A stretch of 61,519 bases of DNA, filler included, from Coriobacteriales bacterium (GCA_031263105.1; 7 parts of 7 records of this genome joined end to end with filler, not necessarily neighbours in it), one strand, 5' to 3'; positions 434 through 57,867 are shown, counted from the whole stretch's first letter. Notes: generated by a model from the sequence alone, not told the origin. Program-made: numbers and translations.

Positions 434-591
434 TAAGAATCTTAGAGAAAATTCGTCGAGCCTGTGGACGGTTCCAGACTGCCTTGCAGATTTCCCCTCC
501 CTTTTGAGGGGGATCGTTTATATTACCGCAAACCATCGCATCCGACAATGGGATTTTCCGGATTTCTTGGATTTCTGGGAGCAATGCTTGA

Positions 592-1038
592 GTTACTGGT
601 CACACCCCCACTGTTGGAATCTTTGGGTACGAGCGCCCGGGAAACAGTCCAGCGGACTGTTTCCAGCGAGGACGGCGCGACAGTCCGGCGGACTGGGAAA
701 CAGCGCGGTGCGCTGTTTCCGGGCGAAGCTGCGAAGCAGCGTATGAGCCCCTGAGCGTATGAGCCCTTAAGCGGGTGAGCCCATGGAACCGACAGGCCCA
801 CGGAACGCGAAGCGAGCAACGGTAGGTCGAAAGATCCTTCGACCTACGGTCGACCGCTGGCGCGGTCGAAGATTCCGCGGCAGGCTAGGACTGACAGTGG
901 GGTGTCCGGGGAGGGTGCGAGCGGGAACATGGTTGGTGCATCACGCCGAGACCCGAACTTTCACAGCTCGCTCCCACCTGCCTCCTACGGGAAGGACTGT
1001 GAGACAGTGGGGTGTCCGTGGAGGGTGCGACCGGTAAC
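592..1038. mobile_element. GTTAC/GTAAC palindromic MITE-like element, long variant (copy E1)
   Basis: Starts GTTACTGGTCACACCCCCACTG and ends GGTGCGACCGGTAAC. ATGCTTGA occurs at 584-591 and 1039-1046 (and again at 1149-1156). The interior matches 52965-53320 in reverse orientation. Confidence 0.8.
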
Positions 1039-1222
1039 ATGCTTGATGCATCACGACGAGACACGAAATGTCATTGCTCGAACCCCAATGAGTCCTCCGG
1101 GAAGGCCTGTGCGACAGTGGGGTGTCCGTGGAGGGTGCGACCGGTAACATGCTTGATGCATCACGACGAGACACGAAATGTCATTGCTCGAACCCCAATG
1201 AGTCCTCCGGGAAGGCCTGTGC
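893..1222. repeat. 110-bp tandem repeat x3 (element right end plus flanking gene 3' end)
   Basis: GACAGTGG recurs at 893, 1003 and 1113. Units 2 and 3 are identical; unit 1 is degenerate. Confidence 0.9.
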
Positions 1223-1540
1223 GCCGGTCAAGTCGTAGCCCACTTCGTCTGAATAGTATTTGAGGATAGGTGTGGCAAGTCTGAGAATCTGCCCGTTGGA
1301 GGCCTCTTCGCCGTCTCCCACAGTCTGACCCCATTCCTTGCCCCACTCATCGAACAGCGCCGGATCAAACGAGCCGAAGCAGTCCCGCCCGCTCTCGTCC
1401 CTGTATGCCTCGGGGGCCATGTCTGCCAGAACCAGCCCTACGTAGGGATTCTCGGTTCCTTCATAATATTTGACCAGCTCATCGTGCACCAAGACGAATG
1501 CGCCCTGCTTGTCCAACATAGCTTCACTTCTCCGTTTCAT
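1181..1540 (-). CDS. hypothetical acidic protein, possibly a polymorphic-toxin immunity protein
   Basis: 119-aa ORF (likely start MLDKQ) with a DPALFDEW motif, directly downstream of a toxin-like fragment. Confidence 0.55.
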   Translation of the reverse strand: MKRRSEAMLDKQGAFVLVHDELVKYYEGTENPYVGLVLADMAPEAYRDESGRDCFGSFDPALFDEWGKEWGQTVGDGEEASNGQILRLATPILKYYSDEVGYDLTGAQAFPEDSLGFEQ

Positions 1541-1620
1541 CTGGGGACAGAGTTGATGCCCCCGTTTTGTATGATGCCGTTCAATACCTCAACCCATACC
1601 TGCCTGCCGTCAGGCTGAAT
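1537..1620 (-). pseudogene. remnant resembling a polymorphic toxin C-terminal tip
   Basis: Translates IQPDGRQVWVEVLNGIIQNGGINSVPR*. The frame is closed by a TAG at 1782-1780 and has no ATG start. The family resemblance is from memory. Confidence 0.4.
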
Positions 1621-1812
1621 CGCCCTGGGTGACTGGAGAGTTATGCTTCCGGTAGACAGCAAGGCGGCGGTGCGGCAGTCTTCGCGCCGCCTGGCGTCAA
1701 CCTCTCCGTCGTCGATGAAATGACGGAGCCTGATGTCTTCGAGATACTCGGCATAGACGCGAAGCGAATGCCGTGACCGCTAGCGGGTGATAGTGTTAAC
1801 AATGGGGCAGGG

Positions 1813-2133
1813 TCAGGCCGTCTTTTTGGGCTGCATTAATTCCCGTCTTGTCGCCAACTGCGCAAGACCTGTTTCCATCCTCACTATAAAACGGGCGGCA
1901 TACGGGTCGGCATTTTTCCTAATCTCACCGATAAGGCCACCTATCTCATCTAGTATCTCCTCCGGCAGGTCGGCCCTCAGTGCGCCCAGGTCATGGATTG
2001 CCCCGTCGGCCGCAGCAACATATTCGCCTGCATCGTACTCATCTCTTACATCGCCTGACTGCCAGAGCAAGAAGGGCATCATGCCCTCCACCAGAGCTTT
2101 TGCCTGCTTCTCTGTTTTTGATAATTTGTTCAT
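1813..2133 (-). CDS. hypothetical protein (helical, possibly immunity-like)
   Basis: 106-aa ORF with RBS AGGAGTG upstream of the ATG. Confidence 0.6.
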   Translation of the reverse strand: MNKLSKTEKQAKALVEGMMPFLLWQSGDVRDEYDAGEYVAAADGAIHDLGALRADLPEEILDEIGGLIGEIRKNADPYAARFIVRMETGLAQLATRRELMQPKKTA

Positions 2134-2225
2134 TCGATCACTCCTGTCTCAGGACAGGGTACGCTGAGTGAAAGACAGGCACTCCGTCTTGATAAATAGA
2201 CGGCGAAAGGCGACAGAAACGTCAC

Positions 2226-2489
2226 TTAATCGGCGGCTCTCTTTGCATGACCAGCAACAATGGCCGTGCGAAGCTCTTCTCCCCGACGGCAGCGCGGCGT
2301 TGAGAGGTTGCAGCCACGGCGGCATAGCCCGCACGGTTGCGCCTGAAGGGCCTGATGCAGCTCTGGGCTCACCGGCACGGTTGCCGCAACGGCGCATCTT
2401 CTTCTCTGCTCCGCACATAATCGTACCAAGGCAAAGGCGATGCCGCCCAGTATCAACGTCCCCCACGCGTGGCCTGCGATCTCCTGCAT
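2226..2489 (-). CDS. small membrane-anchored Cys-rich protein
   Basis: ATG at 2489 after GAGGTGA, an N-terminal hydrophobic helix, and CGLCRRGCNLSTPRC. Confidence 0.55.
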   Translation of the reverse strand: MQEIAGHAWGTLILGGIAFALVRLCAEQRRRCAVAATVPVSPELHQALQAQPCGLCRRGCNLSTPRCRRGEELRTAIVAGHAKRAAD

Positions 2490-2493
2490 CTCG

Positions 2494-2991
2494 TCACCTC
2501 TCACTCTTCTTGCCGCACGGCTTTTCGGTGCCTTCGCTACCGTCTGTCTGAATGGGCGGGCCGGACACATCTGTCAAGAAACGCAGAATCGCCGCCTGCT
2601 CGGACTCCGAGTAGCGCTCGAAGAAAGACTGCCATTCGACCCTGACCTTCTCGTGCACTCGCTGGTGTTCCTCGAAGAGCGCCCTGCCGTCCTTGGTCAG
2701 CCGATAGTAGATCTCTTTTCTGTTGCCTGTGCCTTGAAAGCTCTCGACCAAGGCCCTGCCTATCAGCTTCTTGCATACCTTGCTCACCGCTCCACGCGTC
2801 AGCCTCAGCGCCTCTGCCACCTTGGTCACGTTTGGCCACTCGAGGCTGCCGATACGATCCAAGCAGTGTATCTCCGTCAGGCTCATGCCCTCCAAGATGC
2901 CCTCGTGCCCATAGTGGGGCATGTCCGAGCGCTCCTGCATTGCAACGACGATATCCAAGCACCTTGAAGCCGTGTCCATCAGTCCTACCAT
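2494..2991 (-). CDS. MarR family transcriptional regulator
   Basis: SLTEIHCL...NVTKVAEALRLTRGAVSKVCKKL...NRKEIYYRLTKDG winged helix. Confidence 0.92.
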   Translation of the reverse strand: MVGLMDTASRCLDIVVAMQERSDMPHYGHEGILEGMSLTEIHCLDRIGSLEWPNVTKVAEALRLTRGAVSKVCKKLIGRALVESFQGTGNRKEIYYRLTKDGRALFEEHQRVHEKVRVEWQSFFERYSESEQAAILRFLTDVSGPPIQTDGSEGTEKPCGKKSER

Positions 2992-3051
2992 TTTGTTGCC
3001 AAGGAAACAGTATTGTCATTGTAGGCCTGATTTGTTTCCATGTCAACAAAA
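2991..3051 (-). promoter_or_regulatory. MarR gene promoter with two palindromic operators
   Basis: TTGACA (3046-3041), 17 nt, TACAAT (3023-3018). Boxes TTTTGTTGCCAAGGAAACA (2991-3009) and TGTTTCCATGTCAACAAAA (3033-3051) are 17/19 inverted copies, each TGTT-N8-AACA. Confidence 0.75.
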
Positions 3052-3085
3052 ATTATGGCACGGAGTGCGGCGTACCTCGGTTTCA

Positions 3086-3248
3086 GTTACTGTTCACACC
3101 CCACTGTCATCCCGAGCCTGTCGAGGGATCCTCGGCCGCGCAAGCGGTCGACCGCAGGTCGAAGGGCCCCCTGACCTGCCGTTGGACACTGCGTGTCCAA
3201 AGATTCCTCGGCGGGGCTCGGAATGACAGTGGGGGTGTGAACTGTAGC
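3086..3248. mobile_element. MITE-like element copy E2 (163 bp)
   Basis: GTTAC...GTAGC ends, long terminal inverted repeat, direct repeat CGGTTTCA at 3078-3085 and 3249-3256. Confidence 0.9.
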
Positions 3249-4266
3249 CGGTTTCATTATTGGTCGCACCCTCCACGGACACTTTTGTCAATGGAAGTGA
3301 CCGGAGAAGACTTACCAGCTCAGCAGTAGTTAGGGACTGCTTGGCTTCAAATTCGATACACAGGCTTGGGTCTGTCTCATATAGGTCAATGATATCGTTG
3401 TAACAACCGACAATTTCGGCGATTGTCATGTTCCTGGCGCTCCCGTCGAACAGGCTGTGTTCGCTAATATTCGTTGAAAGGAACTGCTGGATATCCCACA
3501 CCTCAACCCTACCGCCTAGCCCTACATCGGAAGCTAGGTCGAGTGCAGTTCTCACCCTGTCGAAGATAGTGATGATTACTGGCAGGCAATCAGCCTGTAT
3601 GTTCGACCTGCACTTTTGAATCAGCGGTTCACCGGGAGCAGTTGTGCAATGGATGATCGTGCTGCCAAGTACAAAGTCTCCGCTGCGATCAGTAGGAGAA
3701 TCGGCGACGGAGGCCCCATGAATACCGAACGTCTCTGCTGGCATGATTAGTGCCAACTTGGCCCCAACGAGGTGTTGGAGCACGGTGCCAAGGTATTGTG
3801 TTCCAGGGTTTTGCTTCTGCCGCTTTCGTGCCTGGTCGAACAAGTCGTCAAGACTGGCAGCGACCGTTTTGGAGGCATCAGCGGATAAGACGAACGGTTG
3901 GTTTCTGAAATACTGGCGAACTTGCTCAGCCCAGAAATCTTCAGCATCATCCAAGTCTATACCGCCACCTGCATCCCAATCATTGAGAAAGGACACGTAC
4001 TCCTGCATCAAGCCTATGTTGCCACGACTCGTGCGCCCTCCCTCTGAGGCCAGTATCTGCACTATGCTGTGATCGGCCAGTATTTTCTTCAAGTTGCTGC
4101 CGCCTAAGCCTGCCACCTGACCTTTGCTCTCTGTCAAGAAATCGTCTTTGTCCAAGGGGAAACTCTTGGCCTTCGCCATCCTGGACAACTGAACCAGCAA
4201 CGCAAGCGGGCCCTTCGTGTAGGCGTTGTGCTGTTTTTTGAAAACCATCAAGACGCTTTTTGGCAT
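3094..4266 (-). CDS. DUF4928-like protein (putative restriction endonuclease partner of the C5 MTase) with an element-derived C-terminal extension
   Basis: EGGRTSRG, LQHLVGAKL, ADSPTDRSGDF and IHCTTAPGE motifs. Overlaps the MTase stop and reads through E2 to a TGA inside the element. Confidence 0.75.
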   Translation of the reverse strand: MPKSVLMVFKKQHNAYTKGPLALLVQLSRMAKAKSFPLDKDDFLTESKGQVAGLGGSNLKKILADHSIVQILASEGGRTSRGNIGLMQEYVSFLNDWDAGGGIDLDDAEDFWAEQVRQYFRNQPFVLSADASKTVAASLDDLFDQARKRQKQNPGTQYLGTVLQHLVGAKLALIMPAETFGIHGASVADSPTDRSGDFVLGSTIIHCTTAPGEPLIQKCRSNIQADCLPVIITIFDRVRTALDLASDVGLGGRVEVWDIQQFLSTNISEHSLFDGSARNMTIAEIVGCYNDIIDLYETDPSLCIEFEAKQSLTTAELVSLLRSLPLTKVSVEGATNNETGYSSHPHCHSEPRRGIFGHAVSNGRSGGPSTCGRPLARPRIPRQARDDSGV

Positions 4267-5363
4267 TGCCTGCCATACGCAGCCTCCGCTAGTCGAAGTA
4301 AAAACGATTCGCCTACAAAACTGGCAACAGGTTTCGCCACGGCATCTCCCATGGCCTTGTAGCCGTCGTTATACGTATCAGGCAAGGCATAGCTGTCCGG
4401 GGTACCCATCAGGCGGGCTGTCTCCCTAGGTGACAGCAACCGGGCATGAGTCTCTCCGTTTCCCTTGACAATCAGGAACTGCTTGCTGCTTCCGCCTTCT
4501 GGGGTGCGGAGGCAGCCCGCAACGTCATCGAATCTAAGTTCTAGACAGACGCTGCCGTTTCTGGTACGACGATATCCCGTTGCGATGACACTGTCCGCCA
4601 CGTCGATTACCTTCTTATGTTGCGGAGGTATCAGGGCTATGGCCTCGTCTTTGTCATATGGCTCTGTCAGATCAACGATATCCCTCAGCCTCTCCCTGCG
4701 CTTCGGCGGTCTATGTGCCTGCCACCATATCCAGCCAGGAAGCCTGTTCCCAAGACTGGCCGCCGCCTTGTTGTGCAACCAGTTCGGACCGCAGTTCGTC
4801 AAATCCTCCGGAATGTCGACACTTGAGTCAACGGCTATCACGAACACCCTCGGCCTGGATTGCGGCACAAACAGCAAGGCATCGAGCACCACGGCTCCGC
4901 TTCGATAGCCAATGTCTAGCAAAGACTGGTGAAGCCTAGTGTAGTTCTCGCCCTTATTTGAGGTCAACAGCCCTACGACATTCTCTATCACCAGTATCTT
5001 GGGCTTCTTGGGCATCTCCTCAACTATCCTCAGCCATTCCCAGACCAAGCCGCTGCGCTGGGCATCTATGCCGCCCATTGAGCCTGCCAATGACAAGTCC
5101 TGACAGGGGAAGCTCGCCCAAGAAAGGTGAGCGTAGGGAAGAGATGTGCCGCAGACGTTCTTTATGTCGCCAAGAAAGAAGTGGTCACCAGCAAAATTCG
5201 CATTGTAGACCGCTACCTTCTTCTCGCATATGTCGTTTGACCAGATTGGGCGAAACATGCCTTTCAGGCCATAAGCAACAAGTCCGCTGCCCGCAAAGAA
5301 CTCGTGCATGTCCCAAGGGGCATCGGCCAAATCCACTTTTTCATGTTCGCGTTTTTGAGTCAA
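4248..5363 (-). CDS. DNA (cytosine-5) methyltransferase
   Basis: Motif I EFFAGSG, IV FPCQDLS, VI ENV, VIII PQSRPR, IX/X RETARLMG...GDAV. Confidence 0.96.
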   Translation of the reverse strand: MTQKREHEKVDLADAPWDMHEFFAGSGLVAYGLKGMFRPIWSNDICEKKVAVYNANFAGDHFFLGDIKNVCGTSLPYAHLSWASFPCQDLSLAGSMGGIDAQRSGLVWEWLRIVEEMPKKPKILVIENVVGLLTSNKGENYTRLHQSLLDIGYRSGAVVLDALLFVPQSRPRVFVIAVDSSVDIPEDLTNCGPNWLHNKAAASLGNRLPGWIWWQAHRPPKRRERLRDIVDLTEPYDKDEAIALIPPQHKKVIDVADSVIATGYRRTRNGSVCLELRFDDVAGCLRTPEGGSSKQFLIVKGNGETHARLLSPRETARLMGTPDSYALPDTYNDGYKAMGDAVAKPVASFVGESFLLRLAEAAYGRQCQKAS

Positions 5364-5656
5364 TCGACATTCCTCGCTTTTGGAAATGGTTACTCTATAA
5401 GTTTACCACTCAAGATTACCGTTGCCTTCAGTGCGGGAATCACAACTTGGTTTCACGACTTGATTTTCGCTGCCTTTTTCGGTGTACTCGACTCCCTGAA
5501 GGCCATCCAGAGCAAACACGCCCGGAATCTGAACGGATCCTTACCGGATCCTGAACCGAATCTGAATCAAAGAGGAATCTTTGCTGTGGCAGCGGTCGAC
5601 CTCGCCAGGGGGATGCGCGAGGGTGGGGCCGCCTACCCTGGAGCAGGGACGGACAG

Positions 5657-6934
5657 TTAAGCGGGCTGCTGCAGAGCCGCCTGCTCGGGGGCGGGGGCGA
5701 ACTGGGACATCTGGCGGCTGGTGGCGGTCTTGCCGTAGCGGACGGCGGTTATCTCTGAAAGTATCGCGAGCGCCATCTCTGCGGGGGCACGGCCACCGAG
5801 ATCGAGGCCTATGGGGCCGAAGACGCGGGCGAGCTGCCGGTGGGAAAGGCCGCGCTTCCTGAGCTGGCGGTAGCGTTGCGCCTGGGTGGTCGGCCGACCG
5901 AGGGAGCCTATATAGAAGCACTCGGAGGCAAGCGCCAGCTCGAGCGCGGGGACGTCGATCTTCGCGTCGTGCGTCATGACGCAGACGGCGGTCTGCGCGT
6001 CGAGGGGGATAGAGGCGAAGGCCTCCTGCGGCCAGGCGTGGACGAGCCCGTCGACGTGACCGAAGCGCTCCACCGTGGAAAAGATGCCCCGAGGGTCGAT
6101 GATCGTGGTGCGGTAGCCCATCGCCTGGGCCATCTGTGTGAGGGTTATCGCGGCATGCACCCCGCCGACGCAGACGAGATGGGGGCGGCGGCGGTACCTC
6201 GCGAACGAGAAGCGGTGGCAGCCTCCTTCACAAGGAAGCTCAAGGAAGCCGTCGGTCTGGACGGAGGGGACGGCGCACACGGCGTCAAGGCATGCGGCCA
6301 CGAGCCCTTCGGATCCCGCAGGCCCTGTGCGGGACGAGAAGAGGGAAGCGGGGTCGTCGGCCCGTCCGCCCCTCACGGGCCCCGCACAGGACGGGGCGAA
6401 CAGGAGGCTCCCGTCTGCGGAGACGAGCAGGGTGGCACCGAGGGGGATGCCCTGGGCGCCGTCGCCATCCGGAGCCAACGGGGCGGCGTCCGGGGCGGCG
6501 TCTCCAAGGGCGTCCGGAGCGGCACTCCCCTCCTCCTCCCCCTCGGGGCGAAAGCCCAGGGAGAGAAGGCGGAGGTACTCCCGGTCGTCGCGGAGAGCGT
6601 TCCGTTCGGCCTCATAGGCCTGCGCATCGAGGGGGCGCAGCAGCACCTCGACCGTCCCGCCGCAGGAGAGCCCTGCCTGCCAGGCGGAAGGGTCCGTGGC
6701 CGTGAAGGACATCAGCTCGGGCCTGCCGCTGGCAAGCACCTCCAATGCCCCTCGGACGACCGCGCCCTCTATGCAGCCGCCCGAGACCGAGCCGGCCATG
6801 CTCCCATCCCGCGCGATCGCAAGGGTTGCCCCCACGGGTCGTGGGGACGAGCCCCAGGTGCGGGTCACGCTCGCCAGAGAGACGCCTTGCCCTTGGGAGA
6901 GCCACGCGTCCACCGAGTCCATGATATCCCTCAT
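5657..6934 (-). CDS. xdhC: XdhC/CoxI family molybdenum cofactor chaperone
   Basis: TWGSSPRPVGA, GSVSGGCIE, GLSCGG, MTHDAKID, YIGSLG, PIGLDLG. Confidence 0.93.
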   Translation of the reverse strand: MRDIMDSVDAWLSQGQGVSLASVTRTWGSSPRPVGATLAIARDGSMAGSVSGGCIEGAVVRGALEVLASGRPELMSFTATDPSAWQAGLSCGGTVEVLLRPLDAQAYEAERNALRDDREYLRLLSLGFRPEGEEEGSAAPDALGDAAPDAAPLAPDGDGAQGIPLGATLLVSADGSLLFAPSCAGPVRGGRADDPASLFSSRTGPAGSEGLVAACLDAVCAVPSVQTDGFLELPCEGGCHRFSFARYRRRPHLVCVGGVHAAITLTQMAQAMGYRTTIIDPRGIFSTVERFGHVDGLVHAWPQEAFASIPLDAQTAVCVMTHDAKIDVPALELALASECFYIGSLGRPTTQAQRYRQLRKRGLSHRQLARVFGPIGLDLGGRAPAEMALAILSEITAVRYGKTATSRQMSQFAPAPEQAALQQPA

Positions 6935-6961
6935 GGATGCCTCCTATCGACAGCGTCCGCC

Positions 6962-7351
6962 CTACTTCCCGGGCTCCCGGACCTCGCGCGGCTCGATGAG
7001 GGGGTCGGTGAGAGGCTCCAGGTTCTGGGAGACCGCCGCGCCGGAGTTGGAGCCTCCCGAGATGCGGTCCTGCTGCAGCGCCTCCTCCTCGCTGCCCTCT
7101 ATGCCTGCGCCGCCGCCGCCCTCGGCCGACATGTCCGGCCCGGTGATCGTGGGAAGCTCCCCTTGGATCACCGTCACGTTGGGGTTGGACTCATGCTCCG
7201 TCGCCTTGGCGGCCGGCTGCTTGGGAGAGCACGCACCCAGAAGAAGCGCACAGGCGAGGACGAGGGCGGCAAGGGAAGTGCCGACCGCTCGCCTGCACGC
7301 CAGATGGCGAGCGGCCTTGCCGCTGTTGGCGGTACCGTTAGCTTGACACAT
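6962..7351 (-). CDS. putative lipoprotein (in frame with the upstream ORF)
   Basis: AAGGAG RBS before the ATG at 7351, basic n-region, hydrophobic stretch, lipobox LLLGAC, acidic tail. Confidence 0.55.
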   Translation of the reverse strand: MCQANGTANSGKAARHLACRRAVGTSLAALVLACALLLGACSPKQPAAKATEHESNPNVTVIQGELPTITGPDMSAEGGGGAGIEGSEEEALQQDRISGGSNSGAAVSQNLEPLTDPLIEPREVREPGK

Positions 7352-8710: not shown

Positions 8711-8722
8711 GACACCCTCCCC

Positions 8723-11976: not shown

Positions 11977-11977
11977 G

Positions 11978-12751: not shown

Positions 12752-12947
12752 TCCTCCTCCTTCTCTTCCATTCGTCGTTCGCGGGTGAGGAGGAAGGGCC
12801 GTCGCAGGCGTCGCAGGCATTGCAGATGTCGCAGGCGTCGCGAAGCCCCTCCGTACCTGAAGATGATACGGAGCGCAGGAAGCGGACGCCTAGTCCAATT
12901 GGAGTAGGGGGATGGGGTATCCTTCTGTTCGGGGGAATCCGTTTGTC

Positions 12948-13106
12948 GTTACTGTGCACACCCCCACTGTCATCCCGAGCCTGCCGAGGGATCTTCGGCC
13001 GCGCAAGCGGTCGACTGCGGCTGAAGGGCGCTTCGACCTGCGGTCGGCTGCCTTGCAGCCGAGGATCCCTCGGCAGGCTCGGGATGACAGTGGGGGTGCG
13101 AGTAAC
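12948..13106. mobile_element. MITE-like element copy E3 (159 bp, core subtype B)
   Basis: GTTAC...GTAAC ends; direct repeat CGTTTGTC at 12940-12947 and 13107-13114. Confidence 0.9.
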
Positions 13107-15922: not shown

Positions 15923-16152
15923 TCACACCCCACTGTCGTTCCGAGCACCCTCCACTGTCATCCCGAGCGTAGCGAAGCGAAGCCGAGGGATCTTTGGTCG
16001 CAAAGCGACCAACCGCAGCCGGGAAGCGCTTCAACCTGCGGTCGGCTGCTTCGCAGCCGAAGATTCCTCGGCTGCGGGGCTTCGCCCCTACGCTCGGAAT
16101 GCCAGTGGGGGGCTCGGGGCGGCAGCGGGGGGAGGGTGGGGGGCTCGGGGCG
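15923..16152. mobile_element. MITE-like element copy E4 (variant arms, cut by gap)
   Basis: TCACACCCCACTGTC...CTGTCATCCCGAGCGTAG...CTACGCTCGGAATGCCAGTGG; core shared with E3; no GTTAC end. Confidence 0.75.
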
Positions 16153-18300: not shown

Positions 18301-18465
18301 GTTACACGTCACACCCCCACTGTCATTCCGAGCCCCGCCGAGGAATCCTCGACCGCGCCAGCGGTCGACCGCAGGTCGAAGGGTCCCCTGGCCTGCCGTC
18401 GGACACTGCGTGTCCAAGGATTCCTCGGCGGAGCTCGGAATGACAGTGGGGGTGTGACGTGTAAC
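18301..18465. mobile_element. MITE-like element copy E6 (165 bp, best-preserved)
   Basis: 49-bp terminal inverted repeat with one mismatch; flanks GATATCCG (18293-18300) and GATATCCA (18466-18473). Confidence 0.92.
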
Positions 18466-27154: not shown

Positions 27155-27351
27155 CATCCCGAGCCCCCACTGTCATCCCGAGCCCCCACTGTCATTCCGA
27201 GCCTGCCGAGGAATCTTCGGCCGCGCCAGCGGCCGACCGCACGTTGAGGGACCCGCCGACCCAAGGATTCCTCGACAGGCTCGGAATGACAGTGGGGGCT
27301 CGGAATGACAGTGGGGGCTCGGGATGACAGTGGGGGTGTGACCTCAGTAAC
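27155..27351. mobile_element. MITE-like element copy E7 with amplified arms (left end lost in gap)
   Basis: Tandem CCCCCACTGTCATYCCGAG units on both arms; ends GGTGTGACCTCAGTAAC. Confidence 0.85.
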
Positions 27352-28712: not shown

Positions 28713-29100
28713 CGCGTTTCGGAATAAAAGCTATACCGTATTATTCCGCATGATTCTGCGCTTGAGAGAGGGGGTTACTGTTCACGCCCCACTGTCGTCC
28801 CGAGCCCCCACTGTCGTCCCGAGCCCCCACTGTCGTCCCGAGCCCCCACTGTCGTCCCGAGCCCCCACTGTCATCCCGAGCCCCCCACTGTCATTCCGAG
28901 CCCCGCCGAGGAATCCTTGGACACGCAGTGTCCAACGGCAGGCCAGGGGGCCCTTCGGCCTGCGGTCGACCGCTTGCGCGGTCGAAGATCCCTCGGCAGG
29001 CTCGGGATGACAGTGGGGGTGTGAACAAACAGTAACCTAAGGAATGAACCGGTACAGAGAACGCGTTTCGGAATAAAGGCTATACCGCATTATTCCGTAT
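28713..29100. promoter_or_regulatory. duplicated 39-bp operator-like box (28713-28751 and 29062-29100)
   Basis: CGCGTTTCGGAATAAARGCTATACCGYATTATTCCGYAT, 36/39 identical; contains inverted CGGAATAA...TTATTCCG. Confidence 0.7.
28774..29036. mobile_element. MITE-like element copy E8 with six tandem left-arm units
   Basis: GTTAC...GTAAC ends; ACTG recurs at 28791, 28810, 28829, 28848, 28867 and 28887; no 8-bp duplication. Confidence 0.88.
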
Positions 29101-36678: not shown

Positions 36679-36863
36679 GTTACTGTGTTCACACCCCACC
36701 GCCACCCCGGCCCAGCCGCCCGCAGCCGCCCCGGCCCAGCCGCCCGCTGCCGCCCCGGCCCAGCCGCCCGCTGCCGCCCCGGCCCAGCCGCCCGCTGCCT
36801 CCCCGGCCCAGCCGCCCGCTGTCACCCCGGCCCAGCCGCCCGCTGTCACCCCGGCCCAGCCGC
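36679..36863. repeat. element left end followed by a 24-bp tandem repeat (about 6.8 units, 36701-36863) (E9)
   Basis: GTTACTGTGTTCACACCCCAC, then GYCNCCCCGGCCCAGCCGCCCGCT units up to the gap. Confidence 0.85.
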
Positions 36864-44625: not shown

Positions 44626-44776
44626 TCACGCCCCCACTGTCATTCCGAGCTCCGCGAGGAATCTTTGGACACGCAGTGTCCAACGGCAGGTCAGGGGGCC
44701 CTTCGACCTGCGGTCGACCTCTGGCGCGGTCGAGGATCCCTCGACAGGCTCGGGATGGCAGTGGGGTGTCAGTAAC
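44626..44776. mobile_element. MITE-like element copy E10
   Basis: Standard core; right end GGTGTCAGTAAC; direct repeat ACCGGCTTTTCCTTCA at 44613-44628 and 44775-44790. Confidence 0.88.
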
Positions 44777-46339: not shown

Positions 46340-46439
46340 NNNNNNNNNNNNNNNNNNNNNNNNNNNNNNNNNNNNNNNNNNNNTTAATTAATTAANNNNN
46401 NNNNNNNNNNNNNNNNNNNNNNNNNNNNNNNNNNNNNNN
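46340..46439. other. artificial contig spacer
   Basis: N/TTAATTAATTAA/N. Confidence 0.99.
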
Positions 46440-46670
46440 TCCCGAGCCCCCACTGTCATCCCGAGCCCCCACTGTCATTCCGAGCCCCACTGTCATTCCG
46501 AGCCCCACTGTCATTCCGAGCCCCACTGTCATTCCGAGCCTGTCGAGGAATCCTCGACCGCGCCAGCGGTCGACCGCAGGTCGAGGGGCCCCCCGACCTG
46601 CCGTTGGACACTGCGTGTCCAAAGATTCCTCGGCGGGGCGCGGAATGACAGTGGGGGTGTGACGTGTAAC
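46440..46670. mobile_element. MITE-like element copy E11 with at least five tandem arm units
   Basis: 18-19-bp CCCCACTGTCATTCCGAG units; ends GGTGTGACGTGTAAC. Confidence 0.88.
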
Positions 46671-52607: not shown

Positions 52608-52864
52608 GTTACAGAGTTCACACCCCCACTGTCATTCCGAGCTCCGCCGAGGAATCCTTGGACACACAGTGTCCAACGGTAGGTCAGGGGCCCTTCGACC
52701 TGCGGTCGACCGCAGGCGCGGTCGAGGATTCCTCGACAGGCTCGGAATGACAGTGGGGGGTCGGGATGACAGTGGGGGGTCGGGATGACAGCGGGGGGTC
52801 GGGATGACAGTGGGGGGGCGGGATGACAGTGGGGGGTCGGGATGACCGTGGGGGGGTCGGGATG
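52608..52864. mobile_element. MITE-like element copy E12 with amplified right arm (cut by gap)
   Basis: GTTACAGAGTTCACACC start; about six 19-bp TCGGGATGACAGTGGGGGG units. Confidence 0.88.
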
Positions 52865-52964
52865 NNNNNNNNNNNNNNNNNNNNNNNNNNNNNNNNNNNN
52901 NNNNNNNNTTAATTAATTAANNNNNNNNNNNNNNNNNNNNNNNNNNNNNNNNNNNNNNNNNNNN
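52865..52964. other. artificial contig spacer
   Basis: N/TTAATTAATTAA/N. Confidence 0.99.
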
Positions 52965-53320
52965 CATCCCGACCCCCCACTGTCATCCCGAGCCTGCCGA
53001 GGAATCCTCGACCGCGCCAGCGGTCGACCGCAGGTCGAAGGGCCTCCCGACCTGTCGTTGGTCGCTTCGCGTCCCGTGGGCCTGTCGGTTCCATGGGCTC
53101 ACCCGCTCAGGGGCTCACCCGCTGCTTCGCAGCTTCGCCCGGAAACAGCACACTGTGCTGTTTCCCAACGCAGCTTCGCCCGGAAACAGCGCACCGCGCT
53201 GTTTCCCAGTCCACCGGACTGTCGCGCCGTCCTCGCTGAAAACGCGATGCGTTCTCCGGGCGCTCGAACCCAAAGATTCCTCGACAGGCTCGGAATGACA
53301 GTGAGGGTGTGATCTGTGAC
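52965..53320. mobile_element. MITE-like element copy E13, long variant
   Basis: Standard arms with an insert of about 208 nt (53062-53269) shared with E1; ends GGTGTGATCTGTGAC. Confidence 0.85.
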
Positions 53321-53355
53321 CCGCCCCCTGTGACCCGCCCCCTGTGACCCGCCCC
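53314..53355. repeat. 14-bp tandem repeat x3 at the element end
   Basis: CTGTGACCCGCCCC at 53314, 53328 and 53342. Confidence 0.85.
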
Positions 53356-53463
53356 CTGTGCCCTCTGCTCCTTCTGTCCCCGCCCCCTTCTCTCCACGGC
53401 ATCGACGTGCTACACTGGTCCCTGTCGAAAAAACGCAGTACAAACGCAGCAGGTATGGAAGAC

Positions 53464-54918
53464 ATGGCAGGGCACACACGTATCAATGCGCCACGGGACC
53501 CCCGCGCGGCACGCTCCGTCTGCATCCTCGGTCAGGGTGTGACGGGGGAGGCTGTCGCGGCGTACTTCCGCTCGCGCTCCGAACCGGCCACGGTCAGGAC
53601 CTATGTGGAGGGGGACAGGATCGACGGCAGCTTCGACTTGGCGGTCGTGAGCCCCGGCATCCCGCCGTACAGCGGCCTTCTCGCCGAGGCCCGCAGCCAT
53701 GCGCGGGAGACGATCGGCGAGCCCGAGCTCGCCTTCCGCCTCTCGCCCGAGCACTGGTGCGCGGTCACGGGCACGAACGGCAAGACCACGACAACCGCGC
53801 TTGTGGCGCACGTGCTCAACGTCTGCGGCGTCAAGGCGCGCGCGGCCGGCAACATCGGGACGACCTGCATAGAGGCCGTGCAGGCGCGTGCGAAAGACGA
53901 GTACCTTGTCGCCGAGCTCTCGTCCTACCAGCTCGCCTATGCAAGCACCATCGCGCCCGAGGCCGCCATACTGCTCAACATCACCCCCGACCACCTCTCC
54001 TGGCACGGCTCCTTCGAGGCCTATCGGGCCGCGAAGCTCAGCCTGCTCGACCGTATGGGCCCGATGGCCCCCGTCGTCGTCGATGCGACGCTCGACGAGA
54101 CCCGCGCCGTCGTCCGCGCACGCCGCGCCGCGCACCGGCGCACGATACCGGTGGGAACGGCCGAGGGGGTCACGGGCGACATGACCGCGCGCTGCGGTGC
54201 CGCCGAGGCGGCCTTCCTCGATGCGCAGGAGCAGCGGCTCGTCTGCGTCGTCGACGGACGGCGCGTGGCGCTCGTGGGGAAGTCTGAGCTCAGGATACAG
54301 GGGGAGCACAACCAGATAAACGCCCTGGCCGCCGCCGCCTTGGCGCTTGCCTTGGGCTGCCCGGCAGGGCGCGTCGCCGAGGGCCTTGCGGGCTTCGAGC
54401 CGTTGGGGCACCGCATCGAGCCCTGTGGGGAGGCCTGCGGGCTGTCCTTCTTCAACGACTCCAAGGCGACGAACCCCGAGGCGACGTGCAAGGCGCTCGC
54501 GGCCTTCGAGGGCACGCCGCTCGTCGCCATGTTGGGCGGGCGCGACAAGGGCACCTCCTTGGACGGGCTCGTCGCCCTGGCGCAGGGCAGCTGCCGTGCC
54601 GTCGTCTGCTACGGCGAGGCCGGCCCGCGCTTTGCCGCCGCCTTCGGGGCCGCCCCCCGCCGCGCCCCCGCCCCTGCCCCCCCTGCGTCCGATGCCGTCC
54701 CCGGGTCGGCCCCCGCCCCCGCCGTCCTGCTGCGCCCCGGCTTCCGTGCCGCCTTCGATGCCGCCCTGGAGCAGGCGCAGGCAGGCGACGCCGTGCTCCT
54801 CTCGCCCGCCTGCGCATCCTTCGACGAGTTCTCCTCCTTCGAGCAGAGGGGCGATGCGTTCAAGGCGCTCGTCGCCGCGCTCCGCGAAGGCGGGGCACGG
54901 GCAGGGGAGGAGGGCTAG
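53464..54918 (+). CDS. murD: UDP-MurNAc-L-Ala:D-Glu ligase
   Basis: VSPGIP, GTNGKTTT, ELSSYQL, NITPDHL, HRIE, NDSKATN, LSPACASFD. Confidence 0.96.
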   Translation: MAGHTRINAPRDPRAARSVCILGQGVTGEAVAAYFRSRSEPATVRTYVEGDRIDGSFDLAVVSPGIPPYSGLLAEARSHARETIGEPELAFRLSPEHWCAVTGTNGKTTTTALVAHVLNVCGVKARAAGNIGTTCIEAVQARAKDEYLVAELSSYQLAYASTIAPEAAILLNITPDHLSWHGSFEAYRAAKLSLLDRMGPMAPVVVDATLDETRAVVRARRAAHRRTIPVGTAEGVTGDMTARCGAAEAAFLDAQEQRLVCVVDGRRVALVGKSELRIQGEHNQINALAAAALALALGCPAGRVAEGLAGFEPLGHRIEPCGEACGLSFFNDSKATNPEATCKALAAFEGTPLVAMLGGRDKGTSLDGLVALAQGSCRAVVCYGEAGPRFAAAFGAAPRRAPAPAPPASDAVPGSAPAPAVLLRPGFRAAFDAALEQAQAGDAVLLSPACASFDEFSSFEQRGDAFKALVAALREGGARAGEEG

Positions 54919-54920
54919 CC

Positions 54921-56609
54921 ATGGCGACCGCCCGCGCCGCGTCGGCGCCCCCCCTCTCCGCCAAGGCGCCCGCCGCGTCCCGCCGTACGAAGGCGCCGAC
55001 CCCTGTGCGCATCCTCGCGCCGCGCCTGGTGTTCATCGCATCGACCGTGGCCCTGGTGGTCTTCGGCCTCGTCATGGTGTACTCGGCCTCCTTCGTGGAG
55101 GCCTTCACCAACCCCGACATCCAGGACAGCTCCTACATCTTCCGCCGTCAGCTGATGCTGGTCGGCGCGGGCCTCGTCGCCCTTCTCGCCACGGTCGTCA
55201 TCGACTACCGCGTCTGGAACGACATCCGTATAGCGCACAGGCTCCCCCTCTCCTGGCTGCCCTGGGCGGCCGTCCTCGTCCTCCTCGTCCTCACCTGGTC
55301 GATGGGCAACGAGGAGCTCGGCGGCAGGCGCTGGTTCGACCTGTTCGGCATCAACCTGCAGCCGTCGGAGTTCGCCAAGGTGGCGATGCTGCTGGTGGTG
55401 GGGATGCTGCTCGTCCGGCTGCGCGAGGCACAGAACGTGAACCCGGTGCTGCTCATGCTCGCTGCGGCCATAGGCCTGCCGACCCTGTTCATCCTGCTTC
55501 AGCCCGACCTGGGCACGGCCCTCATCGCCTTGGCGGGGATAGTCGCCGTCGCCTGGTTCGGCGAGCTTTCCATGAAGCCCCTGGTCGTCCTCGGGCTGCT
55601 CGTGGCCGTGGTCGTCGCTGCGGCCGTCCTCCTTGCGGGCTTCCGCATGAGCCGCATCGATGCCTGGCTCGACCCTTGGGCCTACGCCTCGGATGCGGGC
55701 TACCAGATCGTGAACTCGTTCTATGCCCTTGCCGACGGAGGCGTCACCGGGGTCGGCCTCGGCCTGTCGCACCAGAAGTACCTCTACCTGCCGCAGCCGC
55801 ACAACGACCTGATCTTCCCGATAATCGGGGAGGAGCTCGGGCTTGTGGGGGCCGTCGTCGTCGTCGTGCTGTTCCTGGCCTTCCTGCTCTCGGCCTTCCT
55901 CGTCGCCCGCAACGCGCCCGACCTGTACGGGAGGGTGGTGGCGGGCTCTGCCGCGACCATGATAGGCTTCCAGGCCTTCCTCAACATGCTCTGCATGGTC
56001 AACCTCCTGCCGATGACGGGCAAGCCCCTGCCCTTCTTCAGTGCGGGCGGGAGCTCGATCATCGTCACGCTCATGCTGGCGGGGCTCGTCGTCAACGTCT
56101 CCCTGCGCTCCATGGTGCCGGACGCGGCCGCCGCACGCCGCGACGAGCTGCTCATCCTTGAGAGCTCGGGCGCCCGGAAAACGCAACGCGCCTCCAGCGG
56201 GAACGGGACGGCAGCCCTCCGGCCTTCGACCGCCCGGAAGGCCGCCCCGCCCGCCTCCCTTCGCCGCCCGCCCCGCCCCGCCCCTGCGTCCGCCTCCGCC
56301 CGCAAGGCCGCCGCGTCCCCGCCCGCCCGCCGCGCACCCGCCCCCGCTGCCTCCTCGGCCCCCGTGGCCTCGCGCACCTCCGCCTTCCGCCGCCCGCCCG
56401 CCCCCGCTCCCTCCCGGGCGGCACCGTACCGCCGCCCGCCTGTGCCCGTTCCCAACCTGAGCCCTGCGCGCAGCCTCAAGGCCAAGGGTGCCCGTGCCGG
56501 GGCCCCGAAGGCAGGGCCCCCGAAGGCGGCCCCTCCCGTGTCCGTCGGCACTGCCCGGGCGGGCGCCCCGAAGGCCGTGCGTCCGAAGGCGCAGGGTGCG
56601 CGCCGATGA
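54921..56609 (+). CDS. ftsW: SEDS peptidoglycan polymerase with a long basic Pro/Ala tail
   Basis: GLVMVYSAS, LQPSEFAK, QPDLGT, GYQ, HNDLIF, PMTGKPLPFFSAGG; between murD and murG. Confidence 0.94.
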   Translation: MATARAASAPPLSAKAPAASRRTKAPTPVRILAPRLVFIASTVALVVFGLVMVYSASFVEAFTNPDIQDSSYIFRRQLMLVGAGLVALLATVVIDYRVWNDIRIAHRLPLSWLPWAAVLVLLVLTWSMGNEELGGRRWFDLFGINLQPSEFAKVAMLLVVGMLLVRLREAQNVNPVLLMLAAAIGLPTLFILLQPDLGTALIALAGIVAVAWFGELSMKPLVVLGLLVAVVVAAAVLLAGFRMSRIDAWLDPWAYASDAGYQIVNSFYALADGGVTGVGLGLSHQKYLYLPQPHNDLIFPIIGEELGLVGAVVVVVLFLAFLLSAFLVARNAPDLYGRVVAGSAATMIGFQAFLNMLCMVNLLPMTGKPLPFFSAGGSSIIVTLMLAGLVVNVSLRSMVPDAAAARRDELLILESSGARKTQRASSGNGTAALRPSTARKAAPPASLRRPPRPAPASASARKAAASPPARRAPAPAASSAPVASRTSAFRRPPAPAPSRAAPYRRPPVPVPNLSPARSLKAKGARAGAPKAGPPKAAPPVSVGTARAGAPKAVRPKAQGARR

Positions 56610-57712
56610 GGGCCGTGATAACCGGCGGGGGGACGGCAGGGCACATCAACCCTGCGCTGGCCGTCGCCCAGGAGCTGCGGGCATGCGGCCACGAGGTGAG
56701 CTACGCAGGGACCCCCCAGGGGCTCGAGGCGAGGCTCGTGGCGCAGGAGGGCTTCCCTTACACGGCGTTTGCGGCAACGGGCTTCAACCGCAGGAAGCCG
56801 CTCACCCTGCTTGCCTCATCGGCACGGGTCGCCCTCAGCACCCTGCGCGCGCGGCGTTGGCTCGCCGCCGTCAGGCCCCAGGTGGTCGTCGGCTTCGGCG
56901 GCTACGTGTCCATCCCCGTCGGCCTTGCGGCATCGCAGATGCGGATACCTCTGGCCATCCATGAGCAGAACTCGACGAGCGGCATGGCCAACCGCTTCCT
57001 TGCACGGCACGCCCAGCTGGTCGCGCTCGCCTACGGCTCCGCCGCCTGCGGCTTCAAGACGAAAGGCGCGGTCGAGACGGTGGGGAACCCCGTCCGCGCG
57101 TCGCTGTTCGAGGCGGACAAGGCCACGGCGCGCGCCGCCTTCGGGCTGCCCCAGGACGCGACGGTGCTCCTTGCCTTCGGCGGCAGCCTCGGCGCACGGC
57201 ACCTCAACGAGGCGCTCGTGTCCCAGGCGGGCTTCCTGCTCTCGGTGCACGGCCTGCACATCCTCCATGTCACGGGGACGAGGGACTACGACGAGACGGC
57301 GGCCGCGCTCGCGCAGCTGCCCTCGGCGGCCGGGCGCTGGCACCTCGTCGGCTACTGCGACCGGATGGGGGAGGCCTACGCGGCGGCCGATGCCGTGCTC
57401 TCGCGCGCCGGCGCGACGACGCTCGCCGAGCTCGGCGCGCTCGGCATGCCCGCGCTCCTCGTCCCGTACCCCTATGCCGCCGCCGACGAGCAGACCGCCA
57501 ACGCCCGTGCCCTCGTCGATGCCGGCGCGGCGGCCCTGCTCGCGGACGACGAGCTGGACACGCCCGCGTTCATCGAGCGCCTGACCCCCTTCCTGCTCGA
57601 CGGGGGCTACCGCGCCTCCCTGACGCGTGCGGCGCTCGCACACGGCAACGCACAGGCCCGCCAGACCCTCGCCCGCCTCGTCGCCGAGCTTGCCGAGCGC
57701 CACGGCGCCTAG
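56606..57712 (+). CDS. murG: lipid I GlcNAc transferase
   Basis: GGGTAGHINP, GFGGYVS, HEQN, GNPVR, GGSLGA, RAGA, EQTANA. Confidence 0.97.
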   Translation: MRAVITGGGTAGHINPALAVAQELRACGHEVSYAGTPQGLEARLVAQEGFPYTAFAATGFNRRKPLTLLASSARVALSTLRARRWLAAVRPQVVVGFGGYVSIPVGLAASQMRIPLAIHEQNSTSGMANRFLARHAQLVALAYGSAACGFKTKGAVETVGNPVRASLFEADKATARAAFGLPQDATVLLAFGGSLGARHLNEALVSQAGFLLSVHGLHILHVTGTRDYDETAAALAQLPSAAGRWHLVGYCDRMGEAYAAADAVLSRAGATTLAELGALGMPALLVPYPYAAADEQTANARALVDAGAAALLADDELDTPAFIERLTPFLLDGGYRASLTRAALAHGNAQARQTLARLVAELAERHGA

Positions 57713-57722
57713 CATCGCCCCG

Positions 57723-57867
57723 GTTACTGACACCCCACTGTCATCCCGAGCCTGCCGAGGGATCTTCGACCGCGCAAGCGGTCGACCGCAGGTCGAAGGG
57801 CCCCCTGGCCTGCCGTTGGACACTGCGTGTCCAAAGATTCCTCGGCGGGGCTCGGAATGACAGTGGG
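57723..57867. mobile_element. MITE-like element copy E14 (cut by gap)
   Basis: GTTACTGACACCCCACTG start, standard core. Confidence 0.88.

Follow-up and report, generated by a model that had tools for sequence, protein, structure and literature searches.

Small repeats with inverted ends or hairpin bodies are familiar components of bacterial genomes. The bacterial MITEs include Correia/NEMIS in Neisseria, RUP in Streptococcus pneumoniae and Nezha in cyanobacteria, while mosaic repeats are represented by the BIMEs of E. coli and the NIMEs of Neisseria. Two groups of insertion sequences are also relevant: the IS66 family and IS66-like MITEs, with ends reading 5'-GTAA... and an 8-bp duplication, and the IS6/IS26 family, which carries the tip GGCACTGTTGCAAA, likewise duplicates 8 bp and, in the case of IS6, moves via cointegrates. 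HUH transposition leaves no target duplication.

The window analyzed here—the whole 61.5-kb stretch of DNA, from an uncultured termite-gut lineage of Coriobacteriia—carries a repeat family that is real and mobile, its mobility being directly evidenced by an empty site. It appears to be a new MITE family, although an ordinary kind of element. Like the bacterial MITEs, its members are short non-coding sequences present in many copies, mostly between genes, with terminal inverted repeats, a target duplication of fixed length and empty sites in relatives. Unlike Correia/NEMIS, RUP and Nezha, they have GTTAC...GTAAC tips and duplicate 8 bp, and the searches found no IS to which these tips belong; the motif underlying their ~150-bp palindrome has also been amplified, independently, in other phyla, identical 12-base tips sit on unrelated bodies in Actinomycetota and Bacillota, and derivatives of 23-27 bp keep their duplications. 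As extragenic hairpin-forming palindromes with TGTCATYCCGAGC in their inner arms, the copies resemble REPs and REPINs with their RAYTs, but differ from REPs in having outer caps and 8-bp duplications. Their modularity—optional hairpin modules at the palindrome apex (E1, E12) and sub-units in tandem—recalls BIMEs and NIMEs, mosaics that are not known to end in inverted tips or to duplicate their target. With IS66 the family shares the 8-bp duplication and tips drawn from the same five letters, but in opposite polarity (GTTAC inward, against GTAAGCG for IS66). With IS6/IS26 it shares the 8-bp duplication and a hexamer, ACTGTT, equally far from the tip; the window copies, however, do not conserve CTGTT, and the cointegrate route of IS6 fits simple small insertions poorly.

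Table 1. Repeat copies and associated features in the window, with their flanking sequences
Feature	Position	Strand	Description	Flanking sequences (position)	Match
E1	592..1038	.	Long composite copy, 447 bp; tips GTTACTGGTCAC... and ...CGACCGGTAAC; upstream of 16S rRNA 5' end	ATGCTTGA (584-591 + 1039-1046)	8/8
Tandem array	885..1222	+	Three 110-bp units, each E1 right tip plus flank; units 2 and 3 identical when aligned
E2	3086..3248	.	Standard copy, 163 bp; right tip GTAGC	CGGTTTCA (3078-3085 + 3249-3256)	8/8
E3	12948..13106	.	Standard copy, 159 bp; between two convergent ORFs	CGTTTGTC (12940-12947 + 13107-13114)	8/8
E4	15923..16152	.	Fragment; left side without GTTAC cap; ends in contig joint
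E5	18301..18465	.	Standard copy, 165 bp; 58-nt arms; between divergent DegT-type and epimerase genes	GATATCCG / GATATCCA (18293-18300 + 18466-18473)	7/8
E6	27155..27351	.	Left cut by contig joint; right tip ...CAGTAAC; 19-bp sub-terminal unit tandemly repeated in both arms
E7	28774..29036	.	Complete copy, 263 bp; 19-bp unit about six times, left arm only	GAGAGGGG / CTAAGGAA, no duplication	2/8
E8	36679..36863	.	Left tip GTTACTGTGTTCAC, then 24-bp tandem array; ends in contig joint
Stub	36964-36971		...CCGTAAC (...ACCGTAAC), past E8's contig joint
E9	44629..44776	.	Left GTTAC cap missing	14-bp direct repeat CGGCTTTTCCTTCA (44615-44628 + 44777-44790)
E10	46440..46670	.	Left cut by contig joint; at least five tandem 18-19-bp units; first 30 nt of right tip same as both E5 tips
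E11	52608..52864	.	Left tip GTTACAGAGTTCAC; at least six tandem 19-bp units in right arm, reaching contig joint
E12	52965..53320	.	Begins after contig joint; right tip GTGAC; extra ~190-bp insert of hairpin modules, as in E1
E13	57723..57867	.	Left tip GTTACTGACAC; ends in contig joint

Thirteen repeat loci were counted in the window (Table 1), or 14 if the stub past the contig joint is counted apart, in agreement with the roughly 14 copies or fragments of the original prediction; the sizes of E2, E3 and E5 likewise reproduce its standard length of 159-165 bp. With up to three mismatches allowed, the core 22-mer CACCCCCACTGTCATYCCGAGC matched 34 times in the window, versus no match in 100 dinucleotide-preserving shuffles. 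GTTAC-type tips are present on eight truncated ends and on the five complete copies, where they form GTTAC...GTAAC-type pairs. Each tip consists of GTTAC, 2-9 variable bases and (T)CAC, and encloses a long, near-perfect palindromic body of ~150 bp built on the 13-mer TGTCATYCCGAGC. The inverted arms reach 91% complementarity over 58 nt in E5 and 95% over 44 nt in E3, and in E2 form two separate stretches of 20 nt and 15 nt; standard copies (E2, E3, E5) are predicted to fold into a long stem with small hairpins at the apex, with predicted energies of -76.2 kcal/mol for E3 as DNA (z -13.2) and -140.6 kcal/mol for E5 as RNA (z -18.8). Divergence among the window copies ranges from 6 to 31%, the tips of E5 and E10 are identical over 30 nt, and degenerate tips occur at the right of E2 and E12 and at the left of E9, which lacks its cap. 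No Pfam-supported gene lies inside any copy, and all six copies with both sides in one contig (E1, E2, E3, E5, E7, E9) are outside Pfam-supported gene bodies. Six N-TTAATTAATTAA-N linkers join the contigs that make up the window, so that DNA across a linker may not be adjacent in the genome; every linker adjoins a repeat copy, and seven copies are therefore truncated. Tandem growth of the 19-bp sub-terminal unit broke the host assembly at these six places, and the repeat family explains the positions of the breaks.

The flanks of four of the five complete copies have the character of target-site duplications. Among the five, the 8-bp flanks agree at 8/8 positions in three, at 7/8 in one and at 2/8 in one, a complete match having a chance of ~1.5e-5 per copy; the duplicated sequence differs between sites and its length is fixed. 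The 8-mers originally reported at four sites (E1, E2, E3, E5) were recovered exactly where they had been placed, and an 8-mer described as part of a longer repeat, at what is here E9, corresponds to the 14-bp direct repeat around that copy. The original proposal had suggested looking in relatives for empty sites that keep only one 8-mer, as a test of whether these flanks are target-site duplications, and such a site was found: in run X2, from another sample, one low-depth contig (depth 6.1; from the study that also yielded the probable source sample) of a strain ~94% identical to the window joins window position 3077 directly to 3249, so that E2 is missing and a single CGGTTTCA is left. In this 920-nt sequence (record 10), window 2554-3077 corresponds to positions 21-545 and window 3249-3631 to positions 546-920. 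Comparison of the window with assembled contigs, rather than reads, of X1 and X2 also located the ends of E2: contigs with unlike flanks start matching exactly at 3086 (18 in X1, 17 in X2), and on the right 11 contigs of X1 leave at 3246 and seven at 3234. The element boundary is sharp, and coincides with the first base of GTTAC.

The same tips were also found in gut Lachnospiraceae, where the 12-base sequence GTTACTGTTCAC and 8-bp duplications bound elements of 27-156 bp with different bodies. Of 36 end pairs, 22 had flanks agreeing at seven or more of the eight positions (16 at 8/8 and six at 7/8), versus 0 of 36 for displaced controls; another 13 agreed at 4/8 or fewer, several of them being hairpins inside larger copies. 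The sequence GTTACTNTTCAC occurs 51 times in Blautia celeris (G002) and 19 times in G001, against four and zero occurrences of the reversed-pattern control. Clean empty sites are present in three further Blautia genomes (G383, G388, G389), in which the flanks of G002 copies overlap by exactly 8 bp—junctions that were read directly—and the flanks of filled and empty alleles are 84-94% identical between species. Derivatives only 23-27 bp long still carry duplications. The distribution of the 12-mer is patchy, with 8-92 copies in 8 of 121 sampled Lachnospiraceae genomes and a single match each in only 2 of 251 sampled genomes of Coriobacteriia; over its first 25 nt, the left tip of E2 agrees at 22 positions with the tip of a Blautia element (L066). 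The GTTAC ends first noted in the window thus hold on other bodies, together with 8-bp duplications and again with empty sites, which supports the view that the GTTAC tips define the mobile unit. Being separable from the body and riding different hairpins in different phyla, the caps point to a conserved transposase. As an example of a mobile MITE from an uncultured lineage the family is clean and well documented, both phyla showing sites with and without the element, and Blautia, being cultivable and having complete genomes, is a tractable place to find the transposase.

Taken together, it is very probable that the elements are non-autonomous DNA transposons (MITEs) whose tips are recognized by a transposase supplied in trans. 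Such an enzyme would recognize both inverted tips, make an 8-bp staggered cut in the target and join the element in, and gap repair would then duplicate the 8 target bases. We infer a DDE-type transposase encoded outside the window, which would read the tips and not the body. Some features sit uneasily with the MITE reading: a transposase with these tips was found nowhere searched, E7 is complete and has no duplication, E9 combines its 14-bp repeat with a missing left cap, and the 2-9-nt spacer between GTTAC and CAC across the window copies is unusual for transposase binding sites.

The body of the element raises the question of a different mover. The 13-mer TGTCATYCCGAGC occurs 18-839 times, versus 0-1 for controls, in five genomes of Chloroflexota, Acidobacteriota and Alphaproteobacteria, in all three cases without GTTAC caps, and in an alphaproteobacterial MAG it builds uncapped palindromes of ~72 bp with no evident duplications. 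The earlier term "REP-cored" is a fair description to the extent that the inner palindrome stands alone, in hundreds of copies, in other phyla; the RAYT link was not found. Such palindromes, together with the REP-like extragenic body, would suit spread of REP/REPIN-type sequences by a RAYT (HUH, Y1) transposase with incidental flanking repeats, but this is highly improbable given that duplications flank four of the five complete copies in the window and 22 of the 36 end pairs from Lachnospiraceae. Profile searches detected no Y1_Tnp in the window or in two of five motif-rich genomes, and in the motif-rich genomes tested only 1 of 10 Y1 loci had the motif within 1.5 kb. The REP-like body looks like cargo, or like a scaffold captured by the caps, and amplification of the uncapped motif in at least three further phyla, with no Y1 at hand, makes the spread of REP-like palindromes a separate question. 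It is also unlikely, although less so, that the copies are old, immobile relics, the empty sites being due to insertions that happened long ago or to exact loss of the sequence between the 8-bp repeats. Short direct repeats around a palindrome are known to allow such exact deletion, no mobilizer was found, and the 6-31% divergence of the window copies, their degenerate tips (GTAGC, GTGAC) and one missing cap are what relics might display. Yet host strains only ~6% apart differ in whether the site is filled or empty, as do Blautia species with 84-94% identical flanks, the 30-nt tips of E5 and E10 are identical, and the copies in G043 look closely alike by eye.

Considerably more plausible, and only slightly short of an even chance, is that the MITEs are miniature derivatives of a catalogued IS family with 8-bp duplications—a subgroup of IS4, ISAs1, IS1182, IS66/ISBst12 or ISL3—which bears on the novelty of the family and not on the MITE reading itself. 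An 8-bp duplication is typical of several catalogued families, the IS26 end has ACTGTT in common with GTTACTGTTCAC, and the search covered six Pfam transposase families in no more than five or six copy-rich genomes, not all of them complete. In the window, none of the 48 ORFs matched a transposase family in Pfam, as originally noted; within the scope of the genome search, no transposase lay beside the solo ends in G002, G019 and G043, and none with the same tips was found among the IS256, ISL3, IS66, IS6, IS1595 and DDE_Tnp_1 matches. The individual candidates depart from the family in their ends or their occurrence. PF00872 (IS256) was matched in three of five copy-rich genomes; the IS256 copy in G019 (contig C29) has tips GGGAGTGTAAAATAAAGTGTGTAA and GGGTTTGTCAAGTAAAGTGTGTAA, unlike those of the family, and the copy in G002 is without GTTAC-type ends. 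The end of the IS66 copy found in G001 is CGCTTAC, whereas the family reads GTTAC inward, and both IS4/IS1634-type copies carry tips of their own and sit inside MITE copies. As to occurrence, PF12762 (IS1595) was matched in none of the five copy-rich genomes, PF13610 (DDE_Tnp_IS240, for IS6/IS26) passed the cut-off in one and was sub-threshold in one more, and ISL3 was represented by fragments only, in two. On the G389 chromosome contig (C1), the 28 exact tips include no pair 0.7-3 kb apart.

A broader reading, which we put forward tentatively and regard as rather doubtful, is that the tip GTTACTGTTCAC and the 8-bp duplication would mark a mini-transposon superfamily spanning Actinomycetota and Bacillota, served by an uncatalogued transposase or a single-copy host enzyme. 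A resident enzyme of the latter kind would work in trans, as RAYT does for REPs. The hairpin cargo of the superfamily would be interchangeable and include the pan-bacterial REP-like palindrome, and the 23-27-bp hairpins would be transposed as such; if so, these hairpins, with duplications of their own, would be among the smallest transposable units known.

The palindromic repeats of the window form a mobile family of real elements, apparently undescribed so far. Very probably they are MITEs, a class of non-autonomous DNA transposons, and are mobilised in trans by an enzyme whose cuts are staggered by 8 bp. A cognate IS aside, every structural MITE feature tested was found, and tips, duplications, empty sites and sharp boundaries were all observed, as was the independence of tips and body. 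The mobiliser would be a DDE-type transposase, putatively encoded elsewhere in the genome or in the community, and the tips would serve as its recognition sites.

Six spacers, each consisting of 44 N, TTAATTAATTAA and another 44 N, interrupt the 61,519 bases of the window (G+C content 63.8%), and a repeat copy adjoins every spacer on at least one side. We read the spacers as contig joints of a draft assembly, and the window as a chain of contigs rather than continuous DNA, so that gene order across a joint is no evidence of adjacency; the repeat copy beside each joint indicates that the assembler broke at the repeats. With up to three mismatches, the core 22-mer CACCCCCACTGTCATYCCGAGC was matched 34 times in the window, compared with no match in 100 dinucleotide-preserving shuffles. 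The repeat occupies 13 loci (E1–E13), five of which are complete copies with both caps within one contig (E1, E2, E3, E5 and E7), while seven others besides E9 are fragments or are cut by contig joints. Standard copies are 159–165 bp long, with inverted arms of 44–58 nt that are 91–95% complementary, and each folds into a single long stem topped by two or three small hairpins (−76.2 kcal/mol and z −13.2 for E3 as DNA; −140.6 kcal/mol and z −18.8 for E5 as RNA). There are extra hairpin modules at the apex of E1 and of E12. Read inward from both ends, the tip runs GTTAC, 2–9 variable bases and (T)CAC(A)CCCC(C)ACTGTCATYCCGAGC; the right tip of E12 is degenerate (GTGAC). The length variation of 2–9 nt between GTTAC and CAC among the window copies is unusual, and both tips of one copy tend to share the intervening bases—ACG at both tips of E5, and the same ACG at the surviving right tip of E10.

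The 8-mer flanks that the original prediction had placed at E1, E2, E3 and E5 were all recovered at their positions. Perfect flank matches were present in three of the five complete copies and, with chance odds of about 1.5e-5 for each, these are not coincidental; the flanks of E7 do not match. E9 is bounded by a 14-bp direct repeat, the first eight bases of which would be the normal duplication, and bases identical to its right flank stand in place of the left cap, which looks like the outcome of a repair or conversion event. All six copies with both sides in one contig lie outside Pfam-supported gene bodies: E1 upstream of the 5′ end of the 16S rRNA gene, E3 between convergent ORFs, E5 between divergent DegT-type aminotransferase and epimerase genes, and E7 between two genes, one encoding a HipA-like kinase with an HTH domain at its N terminus, the other a Cro/C1-type HTH gene. 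Beside E2, a DUF4928 protein adjoins a C-5 cytosine DNA methylase, probably as a restriction-modification pair, and the last ~150 nt of the DUF4928 ORF as called, up to the stop codon, lie inside E2.

Features of the window, with the mini-hairpin loci of Lachnospiraceae and half-unit loci elsewhere
Feature	Position or locus	Description	Left flank	Right flank
E1	592–1038	Complete copy, both caps	ATGCTTGA	ATGCTTGA
E2	3086–3248	Complete copy; right tip degenerate, GTAGC	CGGTTTCA	CGGTTTCA
E3	12948–13106	Complete copy, both caps	CGTTTGTC	CGTTTGTC
E5	18301–18465	Complete copy, both caps	GATATCCG	GATATCCA
E7	28774–29036	Complete copy, both caps	GAGAGGGG	CTAAGGAA
E9	44629–44776	Left cap lost	CGGCTTTTCCTTCA	CGGCTTTTCCTTCA
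Spacers	16153–16252, 27055–27154, 36864–36963, 46340–46439, 52865–52964, 57868–57967	Contig joints		
110-bp units	885–1222	Three in tandem		
DUF4928 and methylase genes	3094–5363			
HipA-like gene	27103–28671	Flanks E7		
Cro/C1-type HTH gene	29108–29476	Flanks E7		
24-bp array	36695–36863	At least seven units of CCGCCCGCTGCCGCCCCGGCCCAG		
Short tandem repeat	53313–53360	CCGCCCCCTGTGAC, at least three times		
Mur-ligase gene	53344–54918			
Half-units, 19–20 bp	27155–27205, 27279–27338, 28787–28901, 46440–46539, 52740–52864	Head-to-tail		
Half-units elsewhere	L041, L027, L025, L276, L287, L296	Head-to-tail		
Mini hairpins	L135, L156, L161, L163, L167, L168, L173			

Evidence of movement in the host lineage came from metagenome assemblies. 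All sampled words of the stretch 3300–12900 occur in run X1, labelled termite gut metagenome and a possible source sample of the window, and a fraction of 0.23 in X2, a run with the same label from the same study. Contigs (not reads) of these two and of a third run, X3, were placed on window positions 200–16100, of which X3 covers almost nothing. A clean empty site in a relative, as expected under the original prediction, was found at E2. Here, a 920-nt X2 contig (depth 6.1) aligns through its positions 21–545 with 2554–3077 and through 546–920 with 3249–3631, with nothing between the two pieces and with 33 and 11 differences, respectively (~94% identity to the window). The contig thus joins 3077 directly to 3249, without E2 and without one of the two copies of CGGTTTCA; it is a single low-depth contig whose run belongs to the study that also yielded the probable source, and the evidence for mobility is direct. 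Moreover, for 18 X1 contigs and 17 X2 contigs with unlike flanks the fit starts precisely at 3086 (the G of GTTAC), while at the right boundary of E2 11 X1 contigs run off at 3246 and seven at 3234. Summed X1 contig depth reaches 1,936–4,251 in element bins, compared with ~22 beside them, a sum over all metagenome contigs rather than a copy number. Near E1 and E3, the X2 contigs end or turn unlike the window short of the elements. We regard the host as a termite gut bacterium that branches deeply within the Coriobacteriia. The best relatives of the Mur-ligase protein are Eggerthellales/Eggerthellaceae (top identity 55%), with nearly all top-ranking matches in Coriobacteriia, and a xanthine-dehydrogenase subunit shares 60–64% identity with proteins from Lachnospiraceae and 'Hungatella' MAGs, possibly as a result of gene exchange between gut bacteria.

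The same tips bound other elements in Lachnospiraceae. Scanning one genome per species for GTTAC-N(2–8)-CACNCCCCACTGTC returned 17 matches. Six are real and fall in G001 (a Lachnospiraceae MAG) and G002 (Blautia celeris), five of them within elements of the G001/G002 type besides the Blautia match; the other 11, including one in Fimbriiglobus, are chance matches in coding DNA. Elements of 27, 61, 94, 106 and 142–156 bp have the 12-mer GTTACTGTTCAC, or GTTACTNTTCAC, at their ends, and the tip can be written as GTTACTGTTCAC(N)CCCCACTGTC. Over its first 25 nt, the left tip of E2 has 22 bases in common with one of the Blautia tips. In B. celeris there are 51 occurrences of GTTACTNTTCAC, and in the MAG 19, compared with 4 and 0, respectively, for the reversed-pattern control. 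The flanks of 36 end pairs—all Lachnospiraceae loci fetched, keeping the better flank match where there were several right-tip candidates and dropping no other row—matched at 8/8 bases in 16, 7/8 in six, 6/8 in one and at most 4/8 in 13, whereas control flanks shifted 8 bp outward never reached 7/8; several of the failing pairs stem from hairpins inside larger copies or from copies truncated at a contig end. Additionally, both flanks of one B. celeris copy with the duplication AATAAAAT were found in three other Blautia genomes, at 84–94% identity and overlapping by exactly 8 bp. The filled junction reads ...AATAAAAT, GTTACTGTTCAC...GTGAACAGTAAC, AATAAAAT..., and the empty site holds AATAAAAT once.

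The distribution across sampled genomes is patchy: the exact 12-mer occurs at least once in 29 of 121 Lachnospiraceae genomes (8–92 copies in eight of them; controls at most 3) and in 2 of 251 Coriobacteriia genomes, with one match each. GTTACNNNNCAC is not enriched in the host's three closest relatives (45, 18 and 12 matches, compared with 80, 39 and 23 for controls). Chance matches aside, the window-type tip was found neither in any other genome of the one-per-species set nor in viral contigs, and its three matches in metagenome contigs are all due to chance; a 27-bp mini hairpin matched once in viral contigs, and a blastn search of plasmids with a Blautia copy gave only three 27-nt chance matches. 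The Lachnospiraceae bodies are unrelated to those of the window and have a G+C content of 46–55%, compared with 64–67%. This conservation of ~23 terminal bases between two groups whose bodies have drifted to host G+C content speaks against recent transfer and for elements that have long resided in each lineage, constrained by a conserved enzyme. The presence of these tips in two phyla, on different bodies, is worth following.

Equally worth following are the 27-bp derivatives with duplications. Full copies in the MAG G001, in the copy-rich Lachnospiraceae genome G043 and in relatives have a left end that already forms a 27-bp hairpin (GTTACTGTTCAC, TCC and GTGACCAGTAAC). Free-standing hairpins of 23–40 bp, with little beyond two 12-base tips, carry 8-bp duplications of their own, matching at 8/8 bases for CCTATTTG, CTTCATAT, CCTGATTC, AATCTTGT, GCGTGTCA and GAAATAAG and at 7/8 in two more cases. 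Either the transposase can use an internal pseudo-tip, or these hairpins are leftovers of a slippage deletion between two directly repeated right-tip copies. Pseudo-tip use would involve synapsis, on duplex DNA, of two tips with just 3 bp between them, which seems physically unlikely; deletion, or a folded single-stranded intermediate, is therefore favoured.

As to the enzyme, none of the 48 ORFs of the window matches a transposase family in Pfam, in keeping with the original prediction that the window holds no transposase. We also examined gene-enclosing end pairs, solo tips and all matches of six transposase families in copy-rich Lachnospiraceae genomes, some of them incomplete, in a search that was not exhaustive. 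The end pairs of 8.2 kb in B. celeris, 5.9 kb in G019 (another copy-rich genome) and 5.6 and 1.7 kb in G043 each consist of two distinct small copies with housekeeping genes in between. The 1.8-kb pair of G043 (L154, contig C20) corresponds to an IS4-type element that has tips of its own, CAATGTCATTTAGATAA, and has inserted into a copy, and an IS1634-like element with tips TTTGACACC lies beside a half copy on contig C1 of G019 (L310); other elements may insert preferentially into the palindromes. Each of the twenty 'solo' tips of G043 belongs either to a mini hairpin or to a small copy in which the second tip is degenerate, and on the chromosome contig of G389 (C1), which has 28 exact tips, no inverted pair is separated by 0.7–3 kb. 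In the genomes tested, the classical families known for 8-bp duplications are either missing or have other tips: those of IS256 copies read GGGAGTGT..., an IS66 copy ends in CGCTTAC and ISL3 is present only as fragments, while PF13610 (IS6) exceeded its cut-off in just one of five copy-rich genomes and PF12762 (IS1595) in none of the five. In addition, the GTAA... polarity known for IS66 is opposite to that of the tips described here, and the known IS26 tip has only ACTGTT in common with them. A mobiliser explained by none of the usual suspects is worth following. At gathering thresholds, the sole Rfam match was a 16S fragment; over E3, with E-values up to 10, only sub-threshold long-hairpin matches of the miRNA type appeared (e.g., MIR8788, 68 bits vs a gathering threshold of 124). 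Among the available extracts of the literature, the strings of the tips, the core 12-mers and GTCATTCCGAGC yielded only primer coincidences in unrelated papers, and nothing relevant was found there on bacterial MITEs with an 8-bp target site.

The inner arms had been likened to REP repeats, which is fair as a description, but no link to RAYT, the Y1 transposase of such repeats, was found in five motif-rich genomes. REP/RAYT insertion proceeds without duplication, unlike that of the window-type elements. The arms contain the 13-mer TGTCATYCCGAGC, and a scan with CCCCACTGTCATYCCGAGC gave at least 53 loci in many phyla. Five of its genomes—two closed Dehalococcoidia and one MAG each of Chloroflexia, Acidobacteriota and Alphaproteobacteria (G375–G379)—hold 145, 69, 18, 43 and 839 copies of TGTCATYCCGAGC, compared with 0–1 for the control. 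PF01797 (Y1) was not found in two of the five, and in the other three the motif lies within 1.5 kb of just one of ten Y1 loci. In the alphaproteobacterial MAG, TGTCATYCCGAGC forms palindromes of ~72 bp without a GTTAC cap, and no flanking repeats were seen at 24 copies inspected by eye. The loop of the TGTCATYCCGAGC palindrome is often GNA, closed by C-G.

Finally, the arms of E6, E7, E10, E11 and E12 contain tandem arrays of a 19-bp sub-terminal unit, CCCCCACTGTCATCCCGAG, with two to at least six repeats, and these arrays account for most contig breaks in this window. Such half-unit arrays are sometimes confined to one arm and also occur in other phyla (e.g., six 20-bp units in a Dehalococcoidia genome), which indicates a recurrent process rather than a local accident. 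The window also contains other tandem repeats. The 110-bp units upstream of the 16S rRNA gene each begin with the right tip of E1 and run on into its flank, units 2 and 3 being identical; the short tandem repeat abuts the degenerate right tip of E12; and the 24-bp array, immediately behind a GTTAC tip, represents either a further, third type of body or the expansion of an array within a copy.
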